A stretch of DNA of 62,344 nt, filler included. It is 9 parts of 9 records of this genome, joined end to end, with 100 filler letters (N's around TTAATTAATTAA, not from the genome) between each part and the next. Parts side by side here need not be neighbours in the genome. Positions count along the whole stretch, not along the records: positions 27,350 to 35,766 come from SRR31147125_108229; 8 more parts are not named here. The stretch is one strand, 5' to 3'. A program made the position numbers and the translations under genes. The notes under the pieces are model-generated. The model had not been told where the DNA came from. It made no database searches and saw only the letters and a program-made list of their open reading frames with translations. This document shows positions 9,948 to 56,284 of this stretch, one piece after another (position 1 is the stretch's first letter; each line of letters begins with the position of its first letter).

Positions 9948-10047
9948 NNNNNNNNNNNNNNNNNNNNNNNNNNNNNNNNNNNNNNNNNNNNTTAATTAAT
10001 TAANNNNNNNNNNNNNNNNNNNNNNNNNNNNNNNNNNNNNNNNNNNN
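9948..10047. other. Artificial contig linker
   Basis: 44 N + TTAATTAATTAA (stop codons in all six frames) + 44 N. Confidence 0.99.
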
Positions 10048-10644
10048 CGTGTGTGCTGGCATGGTATTCCAAACACTGCCTGGCTTAAGTTCTGTCATTC
10101 CCATTTGTAGCTGACAGGTTTCAACAACTGTGTTGATTAAGAGTTGATTGATATCTCGCTCATTAGAAGTTTCCAGTGAACCTAAATGAAGCACATTTGC
10201 ATCTTTTAAGGTAACTTGTTTTACTGGGTATTCTTTGTGAGCAGGTGCTGAATTAAAATAGAAATGTGCCGGTTTTTTTGAAACAGCTGATTTGAAAATA
10301 ACCTCTTTGTTTCCTTTCCCGATATAGAGAGCATCTTTAAATTCAAGGATATATTCTTTACCATCAACCAAAACACTTCCGGTATTTCCTACATTGATAA
10401 TACCAACTTCTCGTCTTTCGCAGAAATATTCTGCTTTAAGCGGCTCAATAGCTTCAAGTAATAATGGTTTTGATGCAGGTACAGCACCGCCAACAATGTA
10501 ACGCTCTATGTGAGAGTAAACCAGGTGAACATCGCCTGGAGTCATTAGTTCTTCTACTAAAAATTCTTTGCGAATTTTTTCTGTGTCGTATTGCTTAAAA
10601 TCGTCTGGATGATAAGCATACCTTTCTTCATAAATTGTTGCCAT
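10048..10644 (-). CDS. kduI: 5-keto-4-deoxyuronate isomerase, 3'-truncated
   Basis: RREVGIINVG, FYFNSAPAH and CQLQMGMTELKPGSVWNTMPAHT motifs. Confidence 0.95.
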
Positions 10645-10655
10645 AATTTTAAATT

Positions 10656-11822
10656 TTATTTGTTAATTTCTTTTTGTCTTACAAGTGCTTCAACATAATA
10701 ATAGTCAGCATAGTTTAATGCCACGTCAATTTCACTGTTCTTAGGTTTGTGTCCGGTGCTGTGAAGTAATAAAAATCCACTATTTGCACCAACTTCGGCT
10801 CTGTATTTTTTTGAATTTAGCGATTCTAAAATTTTGTCAGCGGCTGTAATGTATGTTTCTGCATTTTCAGGACTATAACCACTTAATTCAAATAGTGCAG
10901 ATGCGATTAACGCTGCAGCAGATACATCTTTAGGTTCATTTGGTATTTCAGGTGCATCATAATCCCAGAACGGAATCATATCATCAGGTGCATTTTGTAA
11001 TATAAAGTCAGCAATTTTTTTTGCAAAATCGAGGTATTTTATATCATTTGTTTCACGGTAGCACATGGTATAACCATAAAGTCCCCAGGCTTGTCCTCGC
11101 GCCCATGCTGAATCATCGCTGTAACCTTGGTGAGTTTGCTTTTGAATTGCATTTCCAGTGATTGTATCATAGCTAACAACATGGTAGCATGTCATGTTTT
11201 CCCGATAATGATTTGCCATTGTTGTATCTGCATGTGAAATAGCGATATCTTTATATTTGCTGTCACCAGTAACTTTACTAGCCCAAAATAACATTTCAAG
11301 ATTCATCATGTTGTCAATAATCACGGGGTATTGCCAGTCGCCATGATCCCAGGATTTTATACAGCCAACTGAGGGATTGAAACGCGAGATAAGTGTCTCA
11401 GACGTTTCAATTATTACATCTTTATAGCTTTCGTTTTCAGTAAGTCTTAGCCCATTTCCGTAGCTGCAATAAATCATGAAACCTAAATCGTGAGTACCAG
11501 TATAGCTTTTTACTTCTTCAAGTTTAACTGTATTTACTTCAGCTGCATTTTTCCATTTCTCATCACCTGTTAATTCATACATATACCACATGGTGCCAGC
11601 AGGAAAACCAGATGTCCAGTCTTTTGGTGAAGCTAGTTTCATTCCTTGTTCTTTGGAGTATGAACGAGGTACTTGTTTTCCTTCAGGTATCTGAGTCAGA
11701 AAGTGAGTGAGTTGCTTATCTAATTCTGTAATCAAATCTGTTGATGAATTTTTCGAGTTGTTATCCTTACAAGCAAACAGGCTTAAAGTAATTAATACCA
11801 GAACATAATTTTTAAGTTTCAT
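10656..11822 (-). CDS. GH88 unsaturated glucuronyl hydrolase (lipoprotein)
   Basis: Lipobox LFA-C; WTSGF, THDLGF, IIDNMMNL, WARGQAW and YADYYYVEAL motifs. Confidence 0.92.
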   Translation of the reverse strand: MKLKNYVLVLITLSLFACKDNNSKNSSTDLITELDKQLTHFLTQIPEGKQVPRSYSKEQGMKLASPKDWTSGFPAGTMWYMYELTGDEKWKNAAEVNTVKLEEVKSYTGTHDLGFMIYCSYGNGLRLTENESYKDVIIETSETLISRFNPSVGCIKSWDHGDWQYPVIIDNMMNLEMLFWASKVTGDSKYKDIAISHADTTMANHYRENMTCYHVVSYDTITGNAIQKQTHQGYSDDSAWARGQAWGLYGYTMCYRETNDIKYLDFAKKIADFILQNAPDDMIPFWDYDAPEIPNEPKDVSAAALIASALFELSGYSPENAETYITAADKILESLNSKKYRAEVGANSGFLLLHSTGHKPKNSEIDVALNYADYYYVEALVRQKEINK

Positions 11823-11849
11823 TTTAGAGTTAGTTTAGAGTTAATAATG

Positions 11850-11880
11850 CAAATATAGTACGAAATGGATGAAAATGCAA
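11850..11880 (-). promoter_or_regulatory. Bacteroidota-type promoter for GH88-kduI
   Basis: TATATTTG (11857-11850) matches the TAnnTTTG -7 box, with TTG 20 nt upstream (11880-11878). Confidence 0.6.
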
Positions 11881-11890
11881 TCGATTGCAT
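11875..11890. promoter_or_regulatory. LacI-family operator
   Basis: Perfect 16-bp palindrome ATGCAATCGATTGCAT with the AAnCGnTT core. It lies between the divergent LacI and GH88 genes and overlaps the -33 element. Confidence 0.8.
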
Positions 11891-11950
11891 CAATATTTAA
11901 TTAACACTTCATTTTTAAAAAATAATTGTCATATTTGTATCGCATTGATT

Positions 11951-12982
11951 ATGAAAAAGACATCTGTAACGATACACGATTTAGCCAAAGAACTAAATAT
12001 TTCAGCATCAACAGTTTCAAGGGCATTAAATGATAATCCTAGAATTAGTGAAGCTACAAAAGAAAAAATTAGAAAACTGGCTACAAAGTTGGGATACCAA
12101 CCCAATACAATAGCTTCTAATCTTAGAACTCAGAAAACACATACGATTGGTATTGTGGTTCCGTTAATTAACAGACATTTTTTTTCAACCTTTATTACAG
12201 GGGTTGAAGATGTTTCTTTTGATGCTGGTTATAGTGTTATTATTGCACAATCAAAAGATTCACTGGATAAAGAGAGCAGGGTTGTGCATTCTCTTTTTTC
12301 AAATCGGGTAGATGGTTTAATAACTTCAGTTGGAATGGAAACGAACCAATACGATCATTTTAGTTTGTTTGCTGATAAAAACATTCCAATGGTGTTTTTT
12401 GACCGTATTGCCCCTGATTTTGAAGCCCATAAAATTGTTGTGGATGATTTTAATTGTGGGAAAAGTGCAACTCAGCATTTAATTAATCAAGGATGCAAAC
12501 GAATAGCACATTTAGCTGGACCAACTTCGTTAAATACCTATAGGGAAAGAATGAATGGTTATTTGCATGCTTTGAAAGAAAACCAGCTTAAGATTGAGGA
12601 TGATTTAATTGTATACAACCGCCTAACGCGTATTGATGGGCTTACAGCAATAAAACAGTTGCTTAAGTTGAAGAATCCTCCAGATGCTGTGTTTTGTGGA
12701 AATGATACATCAGCATTAAGTATGATTGTTTATTTACAGGAAAGAGGCATTCGTGTTCCTGAAGATATTTGTATTGTTGGATTTAGTAATGAGCCTTTTT
12801 CTGAAGTTGTAACGCCTTCTATTTCAACGATTAGGCAGCCTGCTTATGAGATGGGACAGAAGGCAGCAGAATTATTAATTCAGGAAATTAATCAGAAGAG
12901 ACCTTCTGTTTCTTTCCGAACAATTGTTATGCCTACAGAATTGATAATTAGACAATCGTCTAATAAGAAAATGTTTGAGTAG
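11951..12982 (+). CDS. LacI-family transcriptional regulator
   Basis: TIHDLAKELNISASTVSRAL HTH, YQPN hinge and sugar-binding domain. Start at ATG 11951. Confidence 0.95.
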   Translation: MKKTSVTIHDLAKELNISASTVSRALNDNPRISEATKEKIRKLATKLGYQPNTIASNLRTQKTHTIGIVVPLINRHFFSTFITGVEDVSFDAGYSVIIAQSKDSLDKESRVVHSLFSNRVDGLITSVGMETNQYDHFSLFADKNIPMVFFDRIAPDFEAHKIVVDDFNCGKSATQHLINQGCKRIAHLAGPTSLNTYRERMNGYLHALKENQLKIEDDLIVYNRLTRIDGLTAIKQLLKLKNPPDAVFCGNDTSALSMIVYLQERGIRVPEDICIVGFSNEPFSEVVTPSISTIRQPAYEMGQKAAELLIQEINQKRPSVSFRTIVMPTELIIRQSSNKKMFE

Positions 12983-13035
12983 TATTTTTTCTGTTTGTTA
13001 GATTACATCTTACCATTTTGATTTAAGCACTGGGT

Positions 13036-13428
13036 TTACTTATTAAACCTGGCTTGTGAGAAAATCCATCCTTTTTCAATAGCCCAAATTGCTTTGTAAA
13101 TTTCGTATTGACAGAGCATGATGTCATGTTTACCTTTACATGTTTCACCTTTTGGATCGTTTTGATATAGATTTTTCAGAATAGGTAAAGCTTTTTCTGA
13201 TCGAATTCTACCTAAAGTCCAGATTGCAATATGTGTTCGATCTGTAACTGATTTTTTTTCATCTAATAAGTAAGCAATTAAAGCATCTTCTGCTGAGCCT
13301 TCATATTCCAGTTGAACGAGTTGTATCCTTTCCTTTACATCGCTTGCAATCCATGCATTCAAAACAAAAAATGATATAATTACAAGTAGAAGTAAGGCTG
13401 ATAATATGATGGTTATGCGTTTTTTCAT
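13036..13428 (-). CDS. Small membrane-anchored HEAT-repeat-like hypothetical protein
   Basis: N-terminal hydrophobic helix and AIWTLGRIRSEKALPIL HEAT-like motif. Confidence 0.65.
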   Translation of the reverse strand: MKKRITIILSALLLLVIISFFVLNAWIASDVKERIQLVQLEYEGSAEDALIAYLLDEKKSVTDRTHIAIWTLGRIRSEKALPILKNLYQNDPKGETCKGKHDIMLCQYEIYKAIWAIEKGWIFSQARFNK

Positions 13429-13516
13429 AGATACAAGTTATGAAAAAAAGAATTTTCTTGTCTGGGAAATGTATCTTATTATCAGCTGAGTTTGGGTATT
13501 AATTTACTTTTTAGAA

Positions 13517-13546
13517 ACAAAAAATCCGATCTGTAAGACCGGATTT
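13517..13546 (-). terminator. Intrinsic terminator after guaB
   Basis: Minus strand AAATCCGGTCT-TAC-AGATCGGATTT followed by a T-run. Confidence 0.7.
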
Positions 13547-13569
13547 AATTCAAAAGTATATGTTGTATC

Positions 13570-15066
13570 TTACATGTTCGCATCTTTTAAAATTACATCG
13601 TGAGCACCACCTTCAACAATGCTGGTAGCAGATACCAATGTAATTTTGCCTTCTTCTTTTAATTGATTTATTGATGTTACTCCACAGCTACACATGGTTG
13701 ATTTCATTTTTCCAATTGTAAGTTCAAGATTGTCTTTCAATTTACCTGCATATGGAACGTAACTGTCAACACCTTCTTCAAATTTAAGATTTTCGCTTCC
13801 TCCCATGTCATAACGTTGCCAGTTGCGGGCGCGGTTAGAACCTTCACCCCAGTATTCTTTAACATAGCGGTTGTTTAGCATGAGTTTTCGCGTTGGACTT
13901 TCGTCAAATCGAGCAAAGTAACGTCCCATCATAAGGAAATCTGCTCCCATCGCTAATGCAAGAACCATATGGTAATCCTGAACAATACCACCATCAGAGC
14001 AGATTGGGATATAAGTGCCGGTTTTTTCAAAGTATTCATCTCGGGCAGCTGCAACATCTATAATTGAGGTTGCCTGACCACGACCAATGCCTTTTTGTTC
14101 ACGAGTAATACAAATTGAGCCACCACCAATACCAACTTTAATGAAGTCAGCACCTGCCTCAGCTAAATATAAAAAGCCTTCTTTGTCAACTACATTTCCA
14201 GCTCCAACTTTCACTTTTCCATCATATTCCTTTTTAACCCATTCTAAAGTTTGTCTTTGCCATTCAGAATAACCATCAGAAGAGTCAATACATAAAACAT
14301 CAGCTCCAGCTTTAATGAGGGCTGGGACACGTTCTTTGTAATCACGACTGTTAATGCCTGCACCTACAATAAGTTTTTTACTTGAGTCTGAAAGTTCGTT
14401 TGGGTGCTGTTTGTGGCTTTCGTAATCTTTACGGAAAACGAAGAAATGTAATTTTTGATTTTCATCTATGATTGGGAGGCTGTTAAGCTTATTGTCCCAT
14501 ATAATATCGTTTGCTTCATTTAGTGAAATTCCAAGTTTACCGTAAACCAACTTGCTAAATGGAGTCATGAAATCTTTTATCTTTTTATCTAGAGGATCAC
14601 GACTAGGTCTGTAGTCACGTCCGGTAACAATTCCGACCAACTTGCCATTAGCAGTTCCATCTTCAGTAATTCCAATGGTCGCATGTCCTGTGTTGTTTTT
14701 AATGTTAATAACATCGGCAAGGGTTTGCTCGGGAGTTAGATTTGAATCACTAATAACAAATCCAGCTTTGAATTTTTTGACTTTCTTAACCATTTCAGTC
14801 TGGCTTTCGATTGACTGCGAGCCAAAGATGAAGGAAAGACCTCCATTTCGGGCGAGGGCTATTCCCATTTCGCTGCCTGAAACAGATTGCATTATCGCTG
14901 AAACAAAAGGAATGTTTAGCTCAATTGAAGGTTCTTCGCCCTTTTTAAAACTAACCAAAGGGGCTTTCAGAGAAACATTCTGCGGAAAACAGTTTTTGTC
15001 GGTAAGGCCTGGGATTAGCAGATATTCGCTAAAGGTTCTGGAAACTTCGTTTGAGATTTTTGCCAT
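13570..15066 (-). CDS. guaB: IMP dehydrogenase
   Basis: CBS pair, [12 protein letters not shown] catalytic loop, SDGGI and YWGEGS. Confidence 0.95.
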
Positions 15067-15097
15067 AATTTGTCACCATTTAAATTAAAAAATTGCG

Positions 15098-15105
15098 CAA
15101 AGCTA
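15098..15105 (-). promoter_or_regulatory. Bacteroidota -7 promoter box for guaB
   Basis: TAGCTTTG on the minus strand, about 30 nt upstream of the ATG. Confidence 0.5.
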
Positions 15106-15145
15106 CTATTAATTTACAAAGTAACGACTATTTTGCTTTCAAAAA

Positions 15146-15895
15146 TTAGCTATTCCAAATTTCCCATGAACGGATAGCTTGCAAATGAAGCATTTCCAGT
15201 CCGTTTTTTACATCAGCACCTTTTTCCTTTCCTTTTTTCATAAAAAGGGTTTCTTCCGGATTGTAAACCAAATCGAAAAGAACATGATCTACTGAAAGGT
15301 GCTCGTATGGTATGTTTGGATAAGAATCAACCTTAGGGAATGTTCCAAGAGGTGTTGCATTAATGATAACCAAATGACTTTTAATCAATTCTTCATTAAT
15401 GGATTCATATCTAATTTCATTTTCAAAAAGTTCATCTTCAATAGAAGCAGAAACATAAGAAACTCCAAGCTTATCAAGTATATGTTTTATTGCTTTTGAA
15501 GCGCCTCCAGTTCCTAAAATTAGTGCTTTTTTGTGTTTCTCATTTAACATTGGTTTTAATGAGTTTTCAAAACCATATACATCTGAATTGTAGCCTTTAA
15601 GTTTTGTAGTGTTACCTTCTTTGATAATTTTGACAGTATTAACAGCTCCCACAATTTTTGCTTCTTCTTCAATTTCATCCAAATAAGGCATGATTTGCTG
15701 CTTGTATGGGATTGTACAATTTAATCCACCAATGTTTTCATTTTTTTCAAAAATTGAAGGGAATTCGTCAATTTTATCTAGTTCAAAGTTTACGTATTCA
15801 TAATCTTTTAAATCTTCTTTCTCAAATTTTTCAGTAAAAAATCCTTTTGAAAAAGAGTATCCAAGTCGGTATCCAATTAATCCAAATGTTTTCAT
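15146..15895 (-). CDS. aroE: Shikimate dehydrogenase
   Basis: NCTIPYK, GAVNT, ILGTGGA, INATPLG and DLVYNP motifs. Confidence 0.93.
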   Translation of the reverse strand: MKTFGLIGYRLGYSFSKGFFTEKFEKEDLKDYEYVNFELDKIDEFPSIFEKNENIGGLNCTIPYKQQIMPYLDEIEEEAKIVGAVNTVKIIKEGNTTKLKGYNSDVYGFENSLKPMLNEKHKKALILGTGGASKAIKHILDKLGVSYVSASIEDELFENEIRYESINEELIKSHLVIINATPLGTFPKVDSYPNIPYEHLSVDHVLFDLVYNPEETLFMKKGKEKGADVKNGLEMLHLQAIRSWEIWNS

Positions 15896-15903
15896 TAATT
15901 CAA

Positions 15904-16670
15904 TTATTTTTTCAATTTTTTTGAAAGACCTTCAATGACGAAGATCAATAAAAATCCAAATACAGCCAACAATAATGCATACATGAATTGCGGATTATTG
16001 CTGGTTATTTCAGCATATGTATTGGGTAGAACGTTTTGCTCAACTAAAGGTTTTAGTTCACCATGCCGGTCTGTAAATGTTTCAATAACTTCTTTCCATG
16101 GCCATACTTTGTTTAAAGATCCAATCATGAAACCTGATAGCAATGCAATAGTAAGGTTGTAGTATTTTTTTAGCAGCCATGATAGAATATTCGAGAATAC
16201 AATAATTCCAATTACAGCACCTACAAGGAAAACAGCAATAATTGGTAGGTTAAAATTGGAAAGTGCTCCTAATATGAATTTATACATTCCCAGTAATACC
16301 AATATAAAACTTCCAGATATGCCAGGCAGAATCATTGCACAAATGGCTATTGAGCCAGATAAGAATACAAAACCATAGCTTGTGTTTGCTTCAGCTGGTG
16401 TAATTACTGTAATTACATATGCAATTGCAGCTCCGGCTAGTAGTGATACTATGGTTCCAATTTTCCATTGTTTAATATCGCGAGCAACATAAATAGCTGA
16501 GGCAATGATTAATCCGAAAAAGAATGACCAAATCAAAATAGGGTGGTGGTCTAGCAAATATTTAAGCCCTTTTGCTAAAGACAAAACACTGATGCCGATT
16601 CCAATAATCAATGCAAATAGGAAATTGCCATTTATGGAATTCCAGAAATCTTTTATTTGAAATGAAAATA
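15904..16670 (-). CDS. DUF368 membrane protein (undecaprenyl-phosphate translocase family), 5'-truncated
   Basis: AMILPGISGS and GSLNKVWPW motifs. Frame is open to the contig end (FWNSINGNFL). Confidence 0.88.
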
Positions 16671-16770
16671 NNNNNNNNNNNNNNNNNNNNNNNNNNNNNN
16701 NNNNNNNNNNNNNNTTAATTAATTAANNNNNNNNNNNNNNNNNNNNNNNNNNNNNNNNNNNNNNNNNNNN
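16671..16770. other. Artificial contig linker
   Basis: 44 N + TTAATTAATTAA + 44 N. Confidence 0.99.
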
Positions 16771-22014: not shown

Positions 22015-22114
22015 NNNNNNNNNNNNNNNNNNNNNNNNNNNNNNNNNNNNNNNNNNNNTTAATTAATTAANNNNNNNNNNNNNNNNNNNNNNNNNNNNNN
22101 NNNNNNNNNNNNNN
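22015..22114. other. Artificial contig linker
   Basis: 44 N + TTAATTAATTAA + 44 N. Confidence 0.99.
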
Positions 22115-27249: not shown

Positions 27250-27349
27250 NNNNNNNNNNNNNNNNNNNNNNNNNNNNNNNNNNNNNNNNNNNNTTAATTA
27301 ATTAANNNNNNNNNNNNNNNNNNNNNNNNNNNNNNNNNNNNNNNNNNNN
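27250..27349. other. Artificial contig linker
   Basis: 44 N + TTAATTAATTAA + 44 N. Confidence 0.99.
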
Positions 27350-27583
27350 AAATCTTTCCCCTGTTTTTCCAGGCGGCAAGGCCCCGGGAACCGGTTTTGA
27401 TTTCTTTTTAGAAAAAGTATCATCAAATTAATTTCAATCTATCCAAAACCATGGGTTACCTGTTTTTGCAGACCTTCTTTTGCCTTGGCAATTTCATGCC
27501 ATATCCTTTCCGCCCACCATAAAATTATCTCAAAAATTAATCCCCTGATACATACAAATACCCGCTTTTCATTTCCTGTTTCA

Positions 27584-27598
27584 AGGCACCTTTATTGA
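27584..27598 (+). promoter_or_regulatory. Possible sigma54 promoter (GG-N10-GA variant)
   Basis: AGGCAC-CTTTA-TTGA versus the consensus TGGCAC-N5-TTGC, 82 nt upstream of flgD. Confidence 0.4.
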
Positions 27599-27680
27599 TA
27601 CTGAAAAGGTGCAGCAAAGAAGGTTTTGCGCCGAATGGAAACTTAAAACCCTAATTTAAAGAACCGTATAAGGAGGGGAT

Positions 27681-28787
27681 ATGTCAGACTCAACCACTAT
27701 TTTAAGCTCCCTTATCTCCGGTTACACCTCTTATGAGACCGAAGACACCACCACCGGGAGCTCAGAGCTGACCACCGATGATTTTCTGACCCTGCTGGTG
27801 GCCCAGCTGGAAAACCAGAATCCCCTGGACCCTGCCGACACAGATGAGTTCACGGATCAATTGGCCCAGTTTTCCCAATTGGAGCAGCTCATCACCGTCA
27901 ATGACAACCTGGATGAAATCATTGAGGACTCCGAGACTGTGGACTCGGAAATCAACGCCATGGACTATGTGGGCATGCAGGTCACGGGCACGGCCAATAC
28001 CATGACCGTAGATGACGGCAGCATCACCTCAGGATACTATTCTTTGGATGAAACCGCAGATGTCTATGTATTGGTTTATGATGAAGACGGCAGCCTGATC
28101 TCCACCATTGACGAGGGACAGGTGGATTCCGGATCCTATCTGGTCACCTGGGACGGCACGGACACAGAAGGGGACAGCGTGGATGACGGTACGTACTACT
28201 ATGCGGTCATGGCCAATACCGGTGACGGGTATGAGGAGATCACCTCATCTCTGACCGGCACGGTGGACTCGGTGGTCTTTCTCTCTGACACCCCCTATCT
28301 GGTCGTCAGCGGGGTTCTCATGGATGTTTCCTCGGTGACCACGGCCACGGATGCCACCTCCAGCGACTCGGACACCACCTCTATTCTGGAATATCTGGGC
28401 ATGACCGTCAGCACCTACTATCCCATTGTCCAGGTGGATGACGGGGCCGTATCAGGCAGCGATCTGACCTATTATCTGGAAAGCCAGGAAGGCGTCACCA
28501 TTTCCATTTACAACGCCAGTGATGAAAATATTGCCACCATTGAAGTGGATTCCGACGACACCGTTGCCGGAGACAACTCCGTGACCTGGGATGGCCTGGC
28601 CGATACCGGATACACGGCCTCAGACGGACTTTACTACTATACCGTGACCACAGAGAGCGGGGATTCCGCCACCACACCGACATCAGGTGAGGTTACGGCC
28701 ATTACCACGGTGAACGGGACCCAATACCTGACTCTCGGCGAATCCGGCCGCCTGATCTCCGTATCCAATGTCACATCAGTCGAATAA
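27681..28787 (+). CDS. flgD: Flagellar hook cap FlgD with duplicated Tudor/Ig region; hyperacidic
   Basis: DFLTLLVAQLENQNPLDP and QLAQFSQLEQL, two TWDG..DG.YYY units, RBS AAGGAGG. Confidence 0.92.
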   Translation: MSDSTTILSSLISGYTSYETEDTTTGSSELTTDDFLTLLVAQLENQNPLDPADTDEFTDQLAQFSQLEQLITVNDNLDEIIEDSETVDSEINAMDYVGMQVTGTANTMTVDDGSITSGYYSLDETADVYVLVYDEDGSLISTIDEGQVDSGSYLVTWDGTDTEGDSVDDGTYYYAVMANTGDGYEEITSSLTGTVDSVVFLSDTPYLVVSGVLMDVSSVTTATDATSSDSDTTSILEYLGMTVSTYYPIVQVDDGAVSGSDLTYYLESQEGVTISIYNASDENIATIEVDSDDTVAGDNSVTWDGLADTGYTASDGLYYYTVTTESGDSATTPTSGEVTAITTVNGTQYLTLGESGRLISVSNVTSVE

Positions 28788-28826
28788 TTGCAGCCACGAT
28801 ATTGACGCTAACTTAAGGAGCACCCC

Positions 28827-31579
28827 ATGTCTTTAACCAGTTCCCTTTATACCGGCACCAGCGGCTTAGGCAACACCAGTGAAGCCCTTCAGGTCACCAG
28901 TAATAATATTGCCAACATCAATACTGTGGCGTTTAAATCGGGGAGCACGACCTTTGCCGATACCCTGTACCAGAGCATCGGCACCCAGTCGGGTGCGGCC
29001 CAGGTCGGCCTGGGTATGTCTGTGGACAACATCTCCTCAGACTTTTCCACAGGATCCGTTGAGACCACCACCAACTCCACGGACCTTGCCATTGACGGCA
29101 GCGGGTTTTTCATCGTCTCCCAGGCAGACTCGGATGAGGTCTACTATACCCGGGCCGGCAACTTCTCCTTTGACGAAAGCGGGGCCCTGTGCAACTCCTC
29201 AGGGTATATCCTCCAGGGATGGGATGTGGATCCGGACACCGGGGACGCCACCGGGGCCATCACCGACCTGATTCTTACGGCCTTTACCAGTTCCCCGGAC
29301 GAAACCGAGGAAATAACGGTTATTACCAACCTGGATTCGGACTCAGACTCCAACACCGAGGTATTGGCCAATGTCTATGAGTATGATGAGGAGGATGACG
29401 AGTCCGTTGCGGTGGACTCGGATACCTATGAATACCAGACCGTGGTCACGGTTTACGACTCTCTAGGTCTGAGCACGAGATCACCATCTACTACGACAAA
29501 TTATCAGACACCACCTGGGAGTATATCATTGTCTGCGACGGGGAGGAGGACGCCCGAAGCCTCCTGGAAGACACCACTGCCGCAGGGCTGCTTGCCCAGG
29601 GTACCATTGAATTTTCCGAAAGTTCCGGTGAAATCGTGAGTATGACCATGATGGAACTGACCGGCCGGGTGGGCAACATAGAAAGCGTCGGCCAGAACGA
29701 CGAGGATGATATCAACTTTGAAGTCGTGGATTCCGATGCCATGCTGGTGGACGGATACGGAATCTCTCTCTCCTTTGACGGAGAGGACTGGAACCTGGAC
29801 ACAAGCTCCCTGCCGGACAGCTACCAGGACGCAGAGGTCATTTATTCTGACGACCAGGAGATCCAGATCCTCCTGGACCCGGACTCCAGCGGCGGAGAGG
29901 ACGAGGCCGACCTTATCATCACCCTCAATGAGGTCGCCATGGCCGGGGATACCCTCTCCTTTGACATCAACGACGTCACAGATCTTCATGTCCAGGATCT
30001 TGAAAACATTGTCTACGGCAATGAAGCCTACAACAACACCACCCTGTCCATTAATGATGCAAGTGTCCTGACCACCAGCATTGAAGATGTCAGCATCGTC
30101 TGGAATCCCTATTCAGAGACCTGGACCTGGAGCAACCCGGAAGATGCGGCAGAGGCCGGCACCCTGGTCACAGGCCTTGACACCAACAGCTCCTCGGCGG
30201 TCACCGTAACCACCTCGGCCATTGATATCACCAATGCCGAGGACCTGACCATGACCGTAGAGGATATTGATCTTATCTACAACGCCACTTTGGGAAGCTG
30301 GGACTGGAATGAAGCCCTGAGGGATGATGACATCACCAATGTCACCACCTCATTGGACGTGGACACGGACTATGAGATGGAAATTGTCACCTCCGGGGAT
30401 GAAGGTGCCATGGCCACAACCTCGGTGGACGGCATTGAACTGGAGTGGGACGGCACCACCTGGTCGGTCACTGATGACGGCGGGCTTAACGTGGCCATTC
30501 TCACCTCGGGCAACAGCAGTACCGAGGTGTCACTCACGGTATATGACTCCAGTTCCTCCGGGGCATCCACCATTTCCTACACCTTTGACTCCGCCCTGAC
30601 CACAGCGGCCGGTCAGACCCTCTCCTTTGACATTGATCCGTCTCCCCCGGCCGAATACGGAGATGCCGAAATTGTGGCCACCACAGACAACAGCGTGGCC
30701 ATTGACTTTGACGCCGACGGCACCACAGACCTGACCATCAACGTCACCTCAGGTGCCACCACAGCCCTGGCCGGCGGGGAAACCCTAAGCTTTGACGTGG
30801 ACCCCGACGTTCCCCCGGCAGAATATGCCGACGCCACCCTTTCCGGGGATGAGAACGAGGTGACCATTGATCTGGACGGATCCGGCGGGGATGACGATTC
30901 CGAGGATTTGGTCTTTACCTTTGAAGATTCTTTGTCCACCGGAACAGATACCGATCCCCTGGATGACAGCACCACCATCACCTTTGATATCGAAGGCTCC
31001 ACCGCCTGGACCGAAGTCTCCACCGACGATGCCGAAGAGACCGGATACTTCACGTTTACCGCAGATTTTCTCGGGGGCGACTCCGGCTCCACTGAACAGG
31101 ATATCTCCTTTAACATCGGTACGGAATGGGACGGCAGCAACTGGGTGAACAGCTCATTGTCCACCACCCAGTATGCCCGGTCCTCCTCCACCACCTACCA
31201 GGATGCCGACGGGTATCCCCCCGGGGACCTGACCGGGGTGGAGGTTGATTCCGACGGATATATCTACGGCACCTATTCCAACGGCCTGGAGATCGCCCTG
31301 TTTCAGGTCGCCCTGGCAGACTTCAACAACTACGACGGCCTGGAGAGCGAGGGCGGGAATCTCTACTCAGAGACCACGGACAGCGGCTCGGCCATCACCA
31401 ATTCGGCCGGGGAAAACGGACTTGGAGAGATCAACTCCTACACCCTTGAGCTGTCCAACGTGGATATCTCAGAGGAATTTGTCTCAATGATCGAACTGCA
31501 GAACGCCTACGAGGCCAATGCAAAAATTATTACCACCGTGGACGAGATGATGGACACGGTCATTTCAATGAAACGTTAG
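28827..31579 (+). CDS. flgE: Flagellar hook protein FlgE (about 917 aa); 1-nt frameshift at about 29468-29470
   Basis: NNIANINT, DLAIDGSGFF, YTRAGNF and VYDSLG. Adding one base continues EHEITIYYDK... into the 647-aa ORF ending LELSNVDISEEF...ANAKIITTVDEM. Confidence 0.92.
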
Positions 31580-31591
31580 GGAGAATCGAAT

Positions 31592-32056
31592 ATGACACCT
31601 TTATTTAAAGAGACCAAAGAAAAAGACGGATTTGACTCCCTTGAACGGAAAATGGTCAGGACCCTGGCCCTTCATCGGGAGATGAAGAAACTGCTGGAAG
31701 CCGAATACGGCGCAGGGTTAAGCTATGATGCCAAGGCCCTGGAAAAACTGACCTTGAGAAAAAACAATTGTGTCAGCCGGTTTGAGCACCTGGTGGGATC
31801 CATCCGGGACCAGATGAAACGTATGGCGGCCCAGCCCCTTGCCCCCACCTGCCCCAGAACCCTGGCCAACCGCCTGAAGGCTATCCCCGGACTGACCCCG
31901 GAACTGGAAGAGCGGCTGCTGCCCCTGGCCAGACAGCTTGAAGAAGAGAACAAGGCCCTGATCAAGGCCTCCAGACGAAACGTTAAAATGCTCAGGGGGG
32001 TTATGGACCGAATCTGGGCGGTGTACCAATATACCCGCCAGGGGCAGATGGGATGA
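31592..32056 (+). CDS. flgN: FlgN-like export chaperone
   Basis: Helical, basic 154-aa protein whose stop overlaps the flgK start (ATGA). Assigned by position and helical pattern. Confidence 0.6.
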   Translation: MTPLFKETKEKDGFDSLERKMVRTLALHREMKKLLEAEYGAGLSYDAKALEKLTLRKNNCVSRFEHLVGSIRDQMKRMAAQPLAPTCPRTLANRLKAIPGLTPELEERLLPLARQLEEENKALIKASRRNVKMLRGVMDRIWAVYQYTRQGQMG

Positions 32057-35000
32057 GCACCTTAAGTGCCATACTCAATTCGGCAGCCTCGGCCCTGAGC
32101 ACCTATCAGTCGGCCATCAGCGTCACAAGCCAGAACATCGCCAATGCTGATAATGAAGATTACAGCATGCAGACCACGGAGTATGCTGCCAGTGACTCCA
32201 TCTCATACAGCGGCGAGATTTACGGCACAGGGGTGGAGGTCAGCGCCATCACCCAGGAGGTGGATCAGCTCCTGGAAAACCAGCTGACCACGGAGCTGTC
32301 CACCCAGGCTGCCCTGGAGGAAGAGGCCACCTATATCTCCCTGATAGAAGACTATTTCACCGAAGACACCGACGACAGCATTAATACCCTTTTGGACGAG
32401 TATTGGTCGGCCTGGGAAGCCCTCAGCGACACCCCTGCCGAAACCTCGGCCCAGGAGGAGGTCTACGCTGCAGGCGTTCAGCTGGCAGAACGGTTTAACG
32501 CCATCAGCGAGGGCCTGGAGGACATGATCAATGACCTGAACACCGAGATCTCCACCTCGGTGTCCGAGATCAACACCATCACCGCCCAGATTGCAGAGCT
32601 GAACCAGGCCATCATCGAAGCCGAGGCTTCCGGGGCCAATGCCAATGACCTTTCCGACGCCCAAAACGCCCTGGTGGACGATCTGGGGGAACTCATTGAC
32701 ATTGACATCACAATCAAAGAGGACGGTTCCTATCTTATCATGACCACCGGGGGGCTGCCCCTGGTGGAAGACCAGATTTCCCATGATCTTGAAGTCAGGG
32801 ACAACCAGATATACTGGTGCGGCAGTTCCGGCAGCGACTATGACATTACAGACGATATAGAGGGCGGCCAGCTGGCCGGCTGGCTGACCATGCGGGACGA
32901 AGTCATCCTGGAAGTCCAGGCTGAACTTGACGAGCTGTCCTCCGCCCTGATCTGGAGCATCAACTACCAGCATTCCCAGGGAGCGGGTCAGACCTTTTTT
33001 ACGGATGCCCTAGAGGGCACCTATGCCACAGGGGACAGCGGTACCCTGGACAGCCTGGACTACGGAGAAAACATTGACTACACCCAGGACTTTTCCATGG
33101 TTATCAGCGATGGGGACGGCAACACCCAGACCGTTACCGTGGACATGGCAATCTCCCGATCGGACATTTCGGAGATCCAGGGCAGTGCAGAGGCCAACGC
33201 CACCTATGAACTCACCGTGGTGGATGAGGGGGTGTTAGGGGATCAGACCGTCACCCAGAGTCAGGCGGACAGCGGAGTGACTTCGGCCGCCAGTATCACC
33301 GACGCCCTGGACGCGGCTTTGGGAGAGCAGACCCTGACCATCACCAGCAGCGACGGCACCCAGACCATTGATATCAGCGACTCGGATTCCGATGTCCGCC
33401 GCAGCGCGGCAGAAATTGCCGAGGCCCTGAACGATATTGACGGGATCACGGCCACGGCCTCCGCCACTGAAGTCGAATTTTCAACTGCCGGCCTCACCAC
33501 GGCCGAGGATGGGGATACCGTCAGCTTTACCCTCTATGTGGACGGTGTGGAAACCAGTGCCTCCTTTACCGTGGACAGCTCGGAAGGCACCCTGGATGAA
33601 CAGCTTGAACAGGCCCTGGAAACTGCCGTGGAGGAGATCAACGAGGACAACCAGAACACGGATCTCATGGTGGACGGCACCACCATTGAAAGCGCATCCG
33701 GGGCCACCATCGGCATCGAAGATTTCCAAGTCACGGACAATGCAGGGGTCACCCTGAGCAATTACACGGATTTTGACACCGGCGACACCATCTCATTCAC
33801 CGTTGAAAACGGCTCTGAATCCGTAACCATCTCCGTGGATTTAGACGGGGTAGACACCACAGATGCCGTTGCCATGGGTGAAAATATTTACGAGGCCCTG
33901 GAAGAGGAACTCGCCGACTATTCATTCTATGCAAACCTGGATGAGACCACCGGGGAGATCACCCTGGCCACGACAGACGGATCTGATCTGGTATTGTCTG
34001 CGGCCAGCGGCGATACAAGCTCCGATGCCAGTATTACCGTGACCACTCTGGGCACCAGCACCACCTCCGGGGACGGGCAGCTGGACTTTGACGGCAGCGA
34101 CTCGGAAACCATCACCCCTGTCACCTCCACTGCAGACTATATCGGATTTTCCCTGGTCGGATGCGAGGACAGCAGTGCCAGCAACGCCACCACCCAGGTG
34201 GGAGAAAGCGGCGGCGCCTATGACACGGCAGCCGTTGTCACGGGAAGCGTTACCATTGTCATGGAGCCGGATATCTCCATTGAATCCGATGATGACTCCG
34301 TCACAGGCCTTTTTGGCACGGATGGAGATTCCGGAGAGGCCGACAGCATGATCACCCTCGGCGGGACCGACGGTTATGAGGGGTTTGACGACGGGGATAC
34401 CATCACCTTTGAGGTGGACGGCACCACGGTCTCCTACACGGTAACAGACCCAGGTACGGGCCTCACAGATGCAGACCAGGCGGAACAGCTCTACACCGCC
34501 TTGAGCACCACCCTGGATTCCGACCAATACACAGTGGTCCTCAACGGCACCTCCGTGAGCATTGTCAGGACCTCTGATGAAGATGATCCCATGGAGATCT
34601 CCAATTTTACCGATGCCACAGGAAATGACGCCACCCTGGCCGTGTCCACGGGCACAGCCGATTCCGGCATTGATGATCCTTCAACAGATACCCTGATTTC
34701 AGGAGATACCCTGAGCAATTCAGCCACAGCCGTCACATACGGGGATGCCGCCCTGATCTATTGGGAGGAGTTTGACAGCGACGGAAATGCCACCGGAGAA
34801 TCCGGATATGTGGAAGTCGACACCCCGGGCCTTGTGGAAATCACAAACTCCGATGATGACACCATTATCAGTTTTGAGGTGTCCGAAGGCAACCTTGTGG
34901 CAGGCAATACCCTGATCATCAATACGGATTCAGAGGGCATGGTGGACGTGCTGGAGGCAGAGGCCTCGGGAACGGCCAACTCCATTGCCGACACCTACGA

Positions 35001-35766
35001 GTTCACCGTAACCACCGGCGGCACACTGCCGGACAGCGAAGAAGCCATTGTAATCACGTGGACCTCGGATACCGGATCCGGCACCATTGAACTTGAAAGC
35101 AGTGATGATGCCGATATCCCCATAACCGTTGAGGTGGACGGCATGAGCCTCACCCTGACCTCCGGCACCCTGGTGGAGGGAGATGTCTTTTACGTATCCA
35201 CAGATGAAAACGGCGAACCCATTACTTTGGAGGGGGATGGTTCGGACACCGTCACCACCCTGTCCGACTGGCATTGGACCCTGTCCTCCTTTGCAGATGA
35301 ATTCAACAGCAGCGCAGGCGGGCTCACCGCCACAGTGACGGATGACAACACCCTGTTGATTGATACCAATGAAGACTATTGCGCCATTGACGAGATCACC
35401 TACACCGATGAATACGGCATCAGCGAGGAGAACACCACCATCACCGTCACCAACTATACCGCCCTTGAAATCGAGGCAGACAGCCTCTCCTTTGTTCGCA
35501 CCGACGGGACCTGGGAGGTGGAGAACGACCCCACCGGCGGCACCATCCAGATCCTTCCCGAAGGCGGGGATGATGACGGTTTTTCTGTGGACCTTGACGG
35601 AGACGGCATTGGAGACATTGAGGTCACCTTTGACCAGGCTGTTTCCGGAGACGGCACCATTGAAATGGCGCTTGTGGAAACCGAATCCGAAGATTTCTCC
35701 TATGCCTTTGCCGGAACCGAGGACGGGGACAGCGGCCTGGCCGCAGCCCTGGGCCTGAACACCTTT
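32053..35766 (+). CDS. flgK: Giant hook-associated protein FlgK (>1238 aa), 3'-truncated
   Basis: SQNIANA..YS.Q, YGTGVEV, IAELNQAI, GGQLAGWL..RD, INYQHSQG, and LAAALGLNTF at the truncation. Confidence 0.9.
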
Positions 35767-35866
35767 NNNNNNNNNNNNNNNNNNNNNNNNNNNNNNNNNN
35801 NNNNNNNNNNTTAATTAATTAANNNNNNNNNNNNNNNNNNNNNNNNNNNNNNNNNNNNNNNNNNNN
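35767..35866. other. Artificial contig linker
   Basis: 44 N + TTAATTAATTAA + 44 N. Confidence 0.99.
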
Positions 35867-39876: not shown

Positions 39877-41067
39877 ATGACAGTAAAAATAAAGATTGAA
39901 AACATAGTGAAGGTATTCGGAAAAAAGCCGAAACAGGCTTTGTCAATGATAGAAAAGGGGATGTCCAAAGGAGAAATTCTTGAAAAGACCGGCTTGGGCG
40001 TGGGCGTAAGCCATGCCAGCTTTGAGGTTTTTGAAGGTGAAATTGTCGTTGTCATGGGGCTTTCCGGAAGTGGGAAATCCACACTTGTCAGGTGTCTTAA
40101 CCGATTGATTGAGCCCACGCTCGGAAAAATCATTGTCGACGGTACGAATGTCACCCAATTGTCTCCGGAGGAACTCAGACTCTTCAGGCAGAATAAATTC
40201 GGCATGGTCTTCCAGAATTTCGCCCTTTTCCCCCATAGAACAGTGGTGCAGAATACGGAATACGGCCTGGAAGTCAAAGGGGTTGACAAAGATGTCCGCC
40301 GGAAAAAGGCCATGGAGGTCTTGGAACAGGTCGGCCTTTCCGAGTGGAAAGATTCCCTGCCGGATCAGCTGAGCGGGGGGATGAAGCAGCGGGTCGGGCT
40401 TGCCAGGGCCCTTGCCCTGGATCCGGATATTCTGTTGATGGACGAAGCCTTCAGTGCATTGGATCCCCTGATCCGGCGCGACATGCAGGATGAATTGATC
40501 GAGCTCCAGAGCAGGCTGAATAAAACCATCATCTTTATCAGTCACGATCTTGACGAAGCATTAAAACTTGGGGACCGGATCGTTCTGATGAAGGACGGCG
40601 CCATTGTCCAGGTGGGAACTCCTGATGAAATTCTTTCCAATCCCGCCACTCGCTATGTGGAAAAATTTGTAGAAGACGTGGACATGACCAAGGTGCTCAC
40701 AGCGGATTCCATCAAGAGAAAAACAAAGGCCTATGGCATCATAAATAATGACGGACCCAAATCCATCCTGAGAAAAATGGATAAGGCCGGGGTTTCATAT
40801 GTATGCATGGTTTCAAAGGATAGCCGGTTTATCGGCATGGTGAGCGATGATGACGCCGCAGGCGCATTGAAAGCCGGCGCCACAAAGCTGGACCATATCA
40901 TTCAAAAAGAGATCAGGACCGCCAGTCCTGAAACGCCTGCAGTGGAACTTTTGGACCTGCTCAAGGATATCTCCTATCCTTTGGCCGTGGTGACCGATGA
41001 GGGGAAACTCAGCGGTGTGATAACCAAAGGTTCTCTTTTATCTGCGCTATCCCAGGGAGGTCACTAA
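39877..41067 (+). CDS. proV: Glycine betaine/proline ABC transporter ATPase with CBS domains
   Basis: GLSGSGKST, LSGGMKQR, MDEAFSALDPLIR and a C-terminal CBS pair. Confidence 0.95.
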   Translation: MTVKIKIENIVKVFGKKPKQALSMIEKGMSKGEILEKTGLGVGVSHASFEVFEGEIVVVMGLSGSGKSTLVRCLNRLIEPTLGKIIVDGTNVTQLSPEELRLFRQNKFGMVFQNFALFPHRTVVQNTEYGLEVKGVDKDVRRKKAMEVLEQVGLSEWKDSLPDQLSGGMKQRVGLARALALDPDILLMDEAFSALDPLIRRDMQDELIELQSRLNKTIIFISHDLDEALKLGDRIVLMKDGAIVQVGTPDEILSNPATRYVEKFVEDVDMTKVLTADSIKRKTKAYGIINNDGPKSILRKMDKAGVSYVCMVSKDSRFIGMVSDDDAAGALKAGATKLDHIIQKEIRTASPETPAVELLDLLKDISYPLAVVTDEGKLSGVITKGSLLSALSQGGH

Positions 41068-41824
41068 TGCCGGTATCCATACCCAAAATACCCATCGGAG
41101 AGATCATCGAAGCCAGTATCGATTTTCTGGTTGAGCATTTTTCATCGGTGACCAAGATTGTATCGGATGTCACGGAAACCGGGATTGATGGATTAATCGA
41201 CGCTATGCTTTTTTTGCCGCCGATATTTTTTATCATATTGATTTCATTCGGGGTCTTCCTGGTGACCCGCAAGAAATCCATTTCAGTTTTTTCTTTATTA
41301 GGCTTTTCACTGATCCTGAACATGGGGCTCTGGGATGCCACCGTCAGCACCTTGGCCCTTGTCTGTGTGGCTACCCTGGTGACCATTGCAGTGGGGCTTC
41401 CTCTGGGCATCCTTGCGGCCTTGAATGATACTGCACATAAAATCATTATCCCTATTCTCGATTTTATGCAGACCATGCCTGCATTTGTTTACCTGATCCC
41501 TGCCATTCCCTTTTTTGGCCTTGGAAAAGTGGCCGCCATATTCTCGACCATGATATTTGCCATGCCCCCGACCATCCGGCTGACTTCTCTGGGAATCCGC
41601 CAGATTCCGGAGGAACTTATCGAGGCTGCCGATGCCTTTGGGTCAACAAAGGCCCAGAAATTATTCAAACTTCAAATTCCCATGGCATCCCCAACCATTA
41701 TGGCGGGTATCAATCAGGCCATAATGCTGGCACTTTCCATGGTGGTGATTGCCGCCATGATCGGGGCAAAGGGGCTTGGCGGCGAAGTCTGGAAAGCCAT
41801 TCAGCGCCTTCAGCCGGGCAGGGG
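41067..41824 (+). CDS. proW: Glycine betaine/proline ABC transporter permease, 3'-truncated
   Basis: LDFMQTMPAFVYLIP, EAA motif and GINQAIMLALSMVV. Confidence 0.95.
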
Positions 41825-41924
41825 NNNNNNNNNNNNNNNNNNNNNNNNNNNNNNNNNNNNNNNNNNNNTTAATTAATTAANNNNNNNNNNNNNNNNNNNN
41901 NNNNNNNNNNNNNNNNNNNNNNNN
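41825..41924. other. Artificial contig linker
   Basis: 44 N + TTAATTAATTAA + 44 N. Confidence 0.99.
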
Positions 41925-49876: not shown

Positions 49877-49976
49877 NNNNNNNNNNNNNNNNNNNNNNNN
49901 NNNNNNNNNNNNNNNNNNNNTTAATTAATTAANNNNNNNNNNNNNNNNNNNNNNNNNNNNNNNNNNNNNNNNNNNN
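49877..49976. other. Artificial contig linker
   Basis: 44 N + TTAATTAATTAA + 44 N. Confidence 0.99.
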
Positions 49977-56184: not shown

Positions 56185-56284
56185 NNNNNNNNNNNNNNNN
56201 NNNNNNNNNNNNNNNNNNNNNNNNNNNNTTAATTAATTAANNNNNNNNNNNNNNNNNNNNNNNNNNNNNNNNNNNNNNNNNNNN
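56185..56284. other. Artificial contig linker
   Basis: 44 N + TTAATTAATTAA + 44 N. Confidence 0.99.

Follow-up and report, generated by a model that had tools for sequence, protein, structure and literature searches.

A flagellar operon with cap, hook and junction proteins almost devoid of Lys, Arg and His at the far end of a Desulfobacteraceae-wide gradient

A flagellar gene cluster, flgD-flgE-flgN-flgK, lies on one contig (the flg contig) of the 62,344-base stretch of assembled DNA analysed here (the window), and its hook cap (FlgD), hook (FlgE) and first hook-filament junction protein (FlgK) are very large, strongly acidic and almost free of Lys, Arg and His. This trait is real, and it represents the far end of a family-wide gradient, not a singular invention. 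The original prediction had itself asked whether such a composition is simply the norm of the lineage, and the answer differs between its parts: large size (~370 amino acids (aa) in FlgD, ~910 aa in FlgE and ~1390 aa in FlgK) and acidity are the norm in Desulfobacteraceae, whereas near-total loss of Lys, Arg and His is exceptional.

The four genes are arranged head to tail on the + strand (Table 1), with gaps of 39 and 12 bases and an overlap of 4 bases between flgN and flgK. FlgD matched the Pfam families PF03963 (76.1 bits), PF13860 (83.8 bits, in two stretches) and PF13861 (Tudor, 32.4 bits), all above their cut-offs, and FlgE, across the two parts into which its gene is split, matched PF00460 (rod N-terminus), PF22692, PF07559 (D1, D2) and PF06429 (C-terminus), also above cut-offs. 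In FlgK the D1 domain PF22638 was detected with 183.9 bits, whereas the N-terminal PF00460 scored 18.8 bits, below its cut-off of 20.7; the C-terminus of the protein falls beyond the contig end, and orthologues such as P0121 and P0122 have a C-terminal PF06429. Sequence matches in the PDB were limited to the cores (residues 5-377 of FlgK and 520-703 of the FlgE C-part), the solved FlgK structures 9go6, 4ut1 and 2d4y aligning to residues 5-311. FlgN reached 31.1 bits with PF05130 (cut-off 30.5). All statements about whole genomes rest on two related Desulfobacter genomes, G001 (locus L001) and G002 (locus L002), both of them species-representative genomes, whose FlgD is 74% and 63% identical to that of the window, respectively; the position of flgN beside flgK is identical in L001 and L002. 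The flg contig encodes hook cap, hook and first junction protein of the type designated below as Desulfobacteraceae set A.

On recount, the numbers of Lys, Arg and His (K+R+H) counted by hand in the original prediction proved exact. FlgD contains a single Arg in 368 aa, with 19.0% of Asp and Glu (D+E) and 70 acidic residues to 1 basic. FlgE has 4 Lys, 6 Arg and 2 His in 917 aa, with D+E at 16.8% in the N-terminal and 21.6% in the C-terminal part, the two parts being counted separately, and FlgK has 1 Lys, 8 Arg and 3 His in its 1238 visible aa, with D+E at 21.2% and a net charge of ~-250. The composition of FlgN is ordinary and basic (14 Lys and 16 Arg in 154 aa). With the same script, FlgD, FlgE and FlgK of E. 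coli K-12 (231, 402 and 547 aa) gave 3.9%, 4.7% and 6.4% K+R+H and 7-10% D+E. The window operon has the same core domains of FlgD, FlgE and FlgK and the same FlgN chaperone as the canonical enterobacterial flgBCDEFGHIJKL operon (E. coli K-12), but its order is D-E-N-K(-L) without rod or ring genes. Its proteins exceed those of E. coli 1.6- to 2.5-fold in length and about twofold in D+E, and their K+R+H is reduced 4- to 14-fold. Nucleotide bias was ruled out as the cause, as the abundance of A on the coding strand should promote Lys codons, and Lys is plentiful in FlgN of the same operon.

The comparison with homologues, based on the best 120 of 1301 FlgD relatives (E <= 1e-5), 74 FlgE relatives of 840 aa or more and 91 FlgK relatives of 729-1491 aa (full-length ones 1120-1491), assigned the operon to the Desulfobacteraceae and put the window lowest in K+R+H in the three lists. 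All of the 120 FlgD proteins are ~370 aa long with a doubled immunoglobulin-like (Ig-like) domain, those with a name belonging to Desulfobacter, Desulfospira, Desulfobacula or Desulfobacterales of no given genus. All are acidic, with 43 or more D+E in ~370 aa, and have 1-33 Lys (median 9) and medians of 2 Arg and 1 His; the single K+R+H residue of the window compares with a minimum of 2 among them. For FlgE, the window has 1.31% K+R+H compared to a median of 4.1% and a minimum of 1.64%, and for FlgK 0.97% compared to 4.8% and 1.57%. The second-lowest value in all three lists came from one 9-kb contig with ~80% identity. Moreover, K+R+H was correlated among FlgD, FlgE and FlgK of one contig (Spearman rho 0.79-0.83, n = 13-23, the genes being paired through matching listed contig sizes). 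The trend is graded across the family and coordinated within one operon, and the window copy stands at its extreme. Acidity and depletion of basic residues also vary quickly between close relatives, and the number of Lys differs sharply between sister FlgD sequences (3 in P0004 vs. 19 in P0013, and 4 vs. 33 in another pair).

A metagenome scan with a single protein found no relative, and one with the alignment found 80 loci (best 57% identity), none of them close kin of the window. These loci served solely as a composition baseline, in which 34 distant FlgD proteins (~227 aa) showed 2.3-11.0% K+R+H (median 6.7) and 5.4-17.7% D+E (median 10.2). The distant FlgE proteins P0311, P0314, P0320 and P0326 (435-811 aa, one from Pirellulales) have 1.5-2.1% K+R+H, and base-poor hooks may have arisen elsewhere too.

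In G001 and G002 the counterpart of the window operon (set A) consists of fliD on the minus strand followed by flgD-flgE-flgN-flgK-flgL, with a giant flagellin gene a few kb on. Its products measure 369-377 aa (FlgD), 910-915 aa (intact FlgE), 154-158 aa (FlgN), 1391-1395 aa (FlgK) and 650-654 aa (FlgL), and fliK, flgF-J and flgM are missing from the cluster. Another set (set B) is part of the main flagellar cluster, which reads fliE-F-G-H-I-J, an open reading frame (ORF) without Pfam match, fliK-flgD-flgE-fliL-M-N-P, flhB-A-F-G and fliA, and continues with flgF-G-A-H-I, flgN, flgK, flgL, flagellins, fliD, fliS and flaG. In G002 both sets are located on one 6.9-Mb chromosome. In each genome, FlgD, FlgE, FlgK and FlgL are encoded twice, but FlhA (FHIPEP), FliF and the FlgF/FlgG pair once. 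Judged by this gene content, G001 and G002 each possess a single basal body along with two full distal sets, and a second complete basal body with its export apparatus, as expected of a dual system, was found in neither. In Vibrio parahaemolyticus, with its polar and lateral flagella, the genes for hook, junction and filament are likewise present in two sets per genome, but there each set comes with its own complete basal body and motor. Directly after fliA in the main cluster, G002 (L025:6411-8144) and G001 (L028:6079-8013) encode a protein of 577-644 aa with ~30% Asp+Glu; that of G002 (109 Asp and 65 Glu of 577) had no Pfam match.

The original description of the cluster as a stand-alone operon skipping fliK, flgFGHIJ and flgM is unreadable from the window, where contig boundaries intervene, but it does apply to the separate cluster of the relatives. 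The proposal of a second hook and junction set that shares its basal body with the first agrees with the genes present in the relatives G001 and G002. In a FastTree tree of FlgD, the clade of the window also holds the set A copies (65 rows, support 96), and the set B copies fell in another clade (56 rows, support 100); for the clade counts, four unresolved rows were assigned by position. Clade A (63 database matches) had a median of 8 K+R+H per ~370 aa and clade B (57 matches) a median of 19 (Mann-Whitney p 2e-12, ignoring relatedness). Desulfospira joergensenii has one FlgD in each clade, both listed on the same 2.4-Mb contig.

The depletion was then located within the flagellum of these relatives. 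In G002, K+R+H of set A was 0.8% in FlgD, 2.3% in FlgE, 1.9% in FlgK, 2.2% in FlgL, 3.4% in FliD and 2.4% in the flagellin; in G001 the corresponding values were 2.7%, 4.5%, 4.8%, 6.1%, 6.3% and 4.6%. Set B ranged over 3.3-4.7% in G002 and 3.8-6.8% in G001. For the remaining components, K+R+H in G002 and G001 was 9.4% and 10.6% in FlgF, 5.4% and 6.5% in FlgG (5.8% in E. coli), 9.6% and 9.0% in FlgH, 11.0% and 11.5% in FlgI and 14.0% and 15.4% in FlgA, with 6.2-8.8% in FliK. ORFs of G002 were classified with a simple home-made heuristic (342 ORFs from 400 kb sampled evenly): the 27 that carried a signal peptide but no other membrane span had a median K+R+H of 12.5% (minimum 3.9%) and D+E of 12.3%, and the 217 cytoplasmic ones a median K+R+H of 14.4%. 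As rod, ring and Sec-exported proteins are ordinary in composition, the depletion is confined to those parts of the flagellum that lie outside the cell; it follows location beyond the outer membrane, and not export route, secretion in general or the whole proteome. A cause in the export route, by which basic residues would hinder type III export of giant substrates, was ruled out, as the rod proteins FlgF and FlgG take the same route and are ordinary.

These data bear on the possibility of a general adaptation to salt or alkali, in which the cytoplasm excludes salt, everything outside the inner membrane is acidic and Lys-poor, and the flagellar proteins are just the most visible case. The signature is indeed halophile-like, with Lys purged far more than Arg (1 Lys vs. 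8 Arg in the window FlgK, 18 vs. 16 in that of E. coli), Asp, Glu, Thr and Ser raised and the cytoplasmic FlgN ordinary, and the sharp differences in Lys between sisters such as P0004 and P0013 suggest tuning to habitat. However, G002, with only 2 Lys, 1 Arg and no His in its set A FlgD, has signal-peptide ORFs of the ordinary composition given above, and its FlgH, FlgI and FlgA are ordinary as well. Nor does FlgN of the window operon, with its pI of 9.9, show the acidic, Lys-poor character of cytoplasmic proteins in salt-in halophiles. The solute-binding proteins of the window are basic (pI 9.6-9.7) but are not tied to the organism of the flg contig; they were dropped as a same-organism control, their best matches in G001 and G002 being just 28-32% identical. 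We consider this explanation unlikely, although it fares best among the alternatives.

The original prediction itself proposed a special polyanionic hook and junction set beside a primary set of normal charge, with a dedicated role such as mineral nucleation or cation capture. Some contrast between the sets exists: in G002, K+R+H of set A vs. set B was 0.8 vs. 3.3% in FlgD, 2.3 vs. 3.6% in FlgE and 2.2 vs. 4.1% in FlgL, and the FlgD clades differ likewise, clade A having fewer basic residues. Moreover, conserved core Arg positions are replaced solely in set A. The motif QR(N/G)Y of FlgE in E. coli and set B reads QNAY in the window, with Arg replaced by Asn in set A, and GYTRQ of FlgK reads DYSMQ, with Met, Thr or Ile instead of Arg in set A. 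In FlgD, LKNQ of E. coli appears as LENQ and LGK(T/G) of three relatives as LGMTV. These four replacements had been pointed out before and were confirmed, but a fifth, FLKLL to FLTLL, was not, as E. coli also reads FLTLL. Against a special set stands the finding that set B, expected to be of normal charge, is also giant and acidic (D+E ~13-17%, K+R+H 3.3-6.8%), and in G001 the two sets barely differ. Calcium-loop motifs of the DxDxDG type (D.[DN].[DN]G) were not enriched, with one each in FlgE and FlgK, a number reached by 21-28% of 1000 shuffles. A dedicated polyanionic set of this kind is thus improbable.

The large size of the proteins comes from arrays of predicted surface outer domains, of flagellin/FliD type in FlgK, and these outer domains carry ~22% Asp+Glu and no Lys. 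The FlgE insert (455 aa) has no Lys, 2 Arg, 1 His and 104 D+E, and the FlgK insert (908 aa) no Lys, 5 Arg, 1 His and 198 D+E. An AlphaFold2 model of the latter (window residues 331-1238, 66 aligned sequences) reached a predicted local distance difference test score (pLDDT) of 88 and a predicted template modelling score of 0.77. Foldseek comparison of this model with the PDB matched outer domains of P. aeruginosa flagellin with probabilities of 1.00 (8sug) and 0.99 (8erm) and the D2-D3 domains of FliD with 0.91 (6iwy) and 0.82 (5h5t), the best E-value being that of the giant flagellin of Geovibrio thiophilus (9au6). The FlgE model is confident over the insert, with pLDDT per block at 85-97 for most of residues 60-520, but its predicted fold was only weakly matched: Foldseek gave no clear match for the insert, with the Salmonella hook core on top (probability 0.54), and VIA-align over 48,161 chains gave Z <= 6.0, under the trust level, the first places being taken by outer domains of FlgK, FlgL and Geovibrio. 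Thus, flagellin/FliD-fold acidic outer domains of the Geovibrio type are predicted for FlgK (acidic to basic residues 198:5). BLAST of each protein against itself detected no internal repeats. In the giant flagellins of G002 (795-951 aa; L027:9516-11936, L026:7640-10495 and 10858-13245), the N- and C-terminal flagellin domains are separated by a stretch of hexapeptide repeats (left-handed beta-helix).

A pure net-charge model is insufficient to account for this composition because at ~-250, as in FlgK, the last Lys and Arg hardly matter, yet they are gone even at core positions. As, in addition, depletion is strongest in the short-lived cap FlgD, the data point to an intrinsic harm of Lys, and to a lesser degree of Arg, once exposed extracellularly, whether by forming sticky patches on a polyanion, as a peptidase site, through amine chemistry or through salting-out of its aliphatic side chain. 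Another explanation is escape from extracellular attack on Lys and Arg, be it by sediment peptidases of the trypsin, clostripain or gingipain type, by amine-reactive chemistry, or by predators and phages that recognise basic patches, acidity being secondary and serving solubility. Such peptidases are common in sediments. The removal of residues that add little charge, even from conserved core positions, and the extreme depletion of a cap exposed at the growing tip would agree with this explanation, but Arg is retained more than Lys, contrary to what a trypsin-type pressure would produce, and we regard attack as the driving force as doubtful.

As to regulation, the original prediction had assigned the operon its own leader. 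A 17-base box and a GGCAC-N5-TTGAT element, which we take to resemble a sigma-54 promoter (GG at -24, GC at -12), are both common to the window and L001 upstream of flgD, and L002 keeps them in part. A conserved sigma-54-like motif is present, but its -12 position deviates and its conservation is weaker in L002, so that the element is a lead and not a finding. Searches with sigma-28 and strict sigma-54 patterns gave no match, and a scan for sigma-70 promoters and terminators gave 7 and 7 sites vs. 4.8 and 6.4 in shuffles, with nothing usable among them. In G002, directly upstream of the giant flagellin of set A (L027:5013-9115), genes encode a sigma-54 activator, an extracytoplasmic function (ECF) sigma factor, a membrane protein, a zf-HC2 anti-sigma factor and a helix-turn-helix protein, and a PAS/hybrid histidine kinase follows the flagellin; G001 has genes of matching order and sizes (L030:9629-13631), the Pfam identities being those of G002. 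A comparable arrangement is found in Azospirillum brasilense, where, as reported (PMC12826043), a flgK-flgL-fliD-fliS-fliC2 cluster separate from the main one adjoins a pair of ECF sigma (RpoE6) and anti-sigma factors, and its minor flagellin enters the same polar flagellum. In contrast to set A, that cluster lacks flgD and flgE and its minor flagellin is small, and no extreme charge is reported for it.

The flgE gene of the window is not an uninterrupted reading frame. Alignment with intact orthologues (903-936 aa) showed a one-base frameshift, with a T missing at GGT|TCT (29468), where the relatives have YDSLG-SEHE. The 703 codons past this point are all open and 68-76% identical to intact orthologues. 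One public DNA run contained 6% of the sampled sequence words, and no RNA run was listed as containing any. In the DNA run, short pieces at a depth of ~2 were identical to the window at four places, and position 29468 lacked clean cover. That the cluster is a decaying pseudogene, a redundant set being lost whose odd composition reflects relaxed selection, would agree with the missing base and with the absence of set A from most sampled family genomes (42 of the 49 FlgD-positive ones gave one match), but it is very unlikely given the open and conserved codons after the shift, the intact FlgD and FlgN and the FlgK intact as far as the contig end, a composition bias that is directional and common to intact relatives, and the plausibility of a sequencing or assembly error where the public run has so little depth.

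The reading that we consider probable is that of a Desulfobacteraceae set A distal operon with base-purged extracellular parts, a second module on one basal body and a selected anionic coat. To judge from the two relatives, set A would form an additional distal module under its own regulation, with its sigma-54-like promoter and a sigma-54 activator and ECF sigma/anti-sigma pair nearby, and would be mounted on the same single basal body as set B of the main cluster. Selection against Lys, and less against Arg, would act on everything exposed to sediment porewater, and its outcome would be a uniformly anionic, cation-screened and non-sticky coat tuned to the habitat; these last two are the weakest steps of the scheme.

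Several observations weigh against this reading. The double set is a minority state in the family: among 61 sampled family genomes, 49 had a FlgD match, of which 42 had one and 7 had two. A second set with a single basal body was seen only in two relatives, at 74% and 63% FlgD identity. The sigma-54-like element has GA at -12, where GC is canonical, and is poorly conserved in L002, the signal-peptide classes rest on a crude heuristic, and the comparison of clades A and B ignores phylogeny in a FlgD tree whose root split is weak (support 18). The frameshift in flgE, if real, means that this copy makes no hook. Finally, the most depleted protein, FlgD, is a transient cap, which agrees poorly with a selection that acts on the outside of the completed organelle.

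Table 1. Features of the flg contig and spacers of the window (positions count along the whole window).
Feature	Position	Strand	Remarks
Upstream leader	27350-27680	+	Whole contig stretch before flgD
Conserved 17-base box	27536-27552	+	From alignment with L001 and L002 upstream regions
Sigma-54-like element GGCAC-N5-TTGAT	27585-27599	+	15 bases; 82 bases before ATG
Ribosome-binding site AAGGAGG	27670-27676	+	
flgD, hook cap	27681-28787	+	368 aa, duplicated Ig-like domain; K0 R1 H0, D45 E25
flgE whole, hook	28827-31579	+	Split over two frames, 917 aa (214 + 703)
flgE N-terminal part, D0/D1	28827-29468	+	214 codons, to frameshift
flgE C-terminal part, next frame	29468-31579	+	703 codons; contains ~455-aa outer-domain insert
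flgN, putative cytoplasmic chaperone of FlgK and FlgL	31592-32056	+	154 aa, basic, isoelectric point (pI) 9.9
flgK, hook-filament junction protein 1	32053-35766	+	1238 codons visible; orthologues 1390-1391 aa
Assembly spacers N44-TTAATTAATTAA-N44	9948-10047, 16671-16770, 22015-22114, 27250-27349, 35767-35866, 41825-41924, 49877-49976, 56185-56284		27250-27349 marks the end of the preceding contig and 35767-35866 the end of the flg contig; neither is biological

The window is made up of nine contigs of 5.1-9.9 kb, with G+C contents of 0.35-0.56, strung together by eight spacers. The flg contig (27350-35766; 8,417 bases) has 331 bases before flgD, and flgK is severed by its end. Elsewhere in the window, the piece at 10048-16670 (G+C 0.35) encodes a GH88 lipoprotein and a LacI regulator, and the bin may mix organisms; the contig at 49977-56184 (G+C 0.40) carries four successive genes of nitrogenase component-1 type (PF00148, nifDK/nifEN-like); and positions 39877-41824 encode an ATP-binding cassette (ABC) ATPase that contains CBS domains and, after it, a permease, tentatively, by resemblance, an osmolyte importer of the glycine-betaine/proline type.

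In the literature searched, we found no paper that describes hook, cap or junction proteins as acidic or Lys-free, and none that describes a duplication of distal sets for Desulfobacteraceae. The closest precedent is the negatively charged giant flagellin of Geovibrio thiophilus (9au6), also a very large flagellar protein of an anaerobe, for which strongly acidic outer domains fully coating the core are described, together with a strongly negative surface with ~3 acidic residues per basic one, and a proposed adhesion to positively charged minerals (PMC11532411). There the feature concerns the filament protein only, whereas in the window cap, hook and junction are affected, with acidic to basic ratios of 70:1 in FlgD, 104:2 in the FlgE insert and 198:5 in the FlgK insert; the inserts are Lys-free, and sequence similarity is undetectable, the structural likeness consisting of the top E-value for the FlgK insert model and a weak match by VIA (Z 5.3) that covers a portion of the FlgE insert. 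Enlargement of flagellar proteins by outer-domain expansion in environmental bacteria is also described for Bermanella and Oleibacter, with giant flagellins and thick filaments, delta/epsilon-proteobacteria being among the giant-flagellin lineages, and the main text of that report offers nothing on size or charge of hook, junction or cap (PMC6248924). The hook of Campylobacter jejuni (PDB 5jxl, 851 aa) is likewise more than twice the enterobacterial size through extra domains in its outer part, but only the C-terminal core aligns (residues 520-702 of the window C-part to 673-850 of the chain), and the window insert has no clear structural match.

[quoted passage not shown] What is new is that, in an abundant family of marine sulfate reducers, every extracellular flagellar part follows the same rule, the cap included and not the filament alone, that this rule can extend to the removal of essentially all lysine, and that in some members the entire distal half of the organelle exists in duplicate with a single motor. 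A practical consequence is that trypsin-based proteomics would see these proteins poorly. The question is also raised of how a hook flexes and a junction assembles with almost no positive charges. As a tentative and rather speculative extension, Desulfobacter-type sulfate reducers might possess two interchangeable extracellular outfits, each of cap, hook, both junctions, filament and filament cap, for one motor and under separate regulators, with set A as a polyanionic Lys-free coat whose charge is tuned to habitat. The window would then represent the end point, with lysine missing altogether from hook and junction surface arrays of ~450 and ~900 residues, which would have to pack through porewater Mg2+/Ca2+ and not through salt bridges. 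If the two sets are alternative coats, they would provide a simple natural system for the function of flagellar surface chemistry in sediments.

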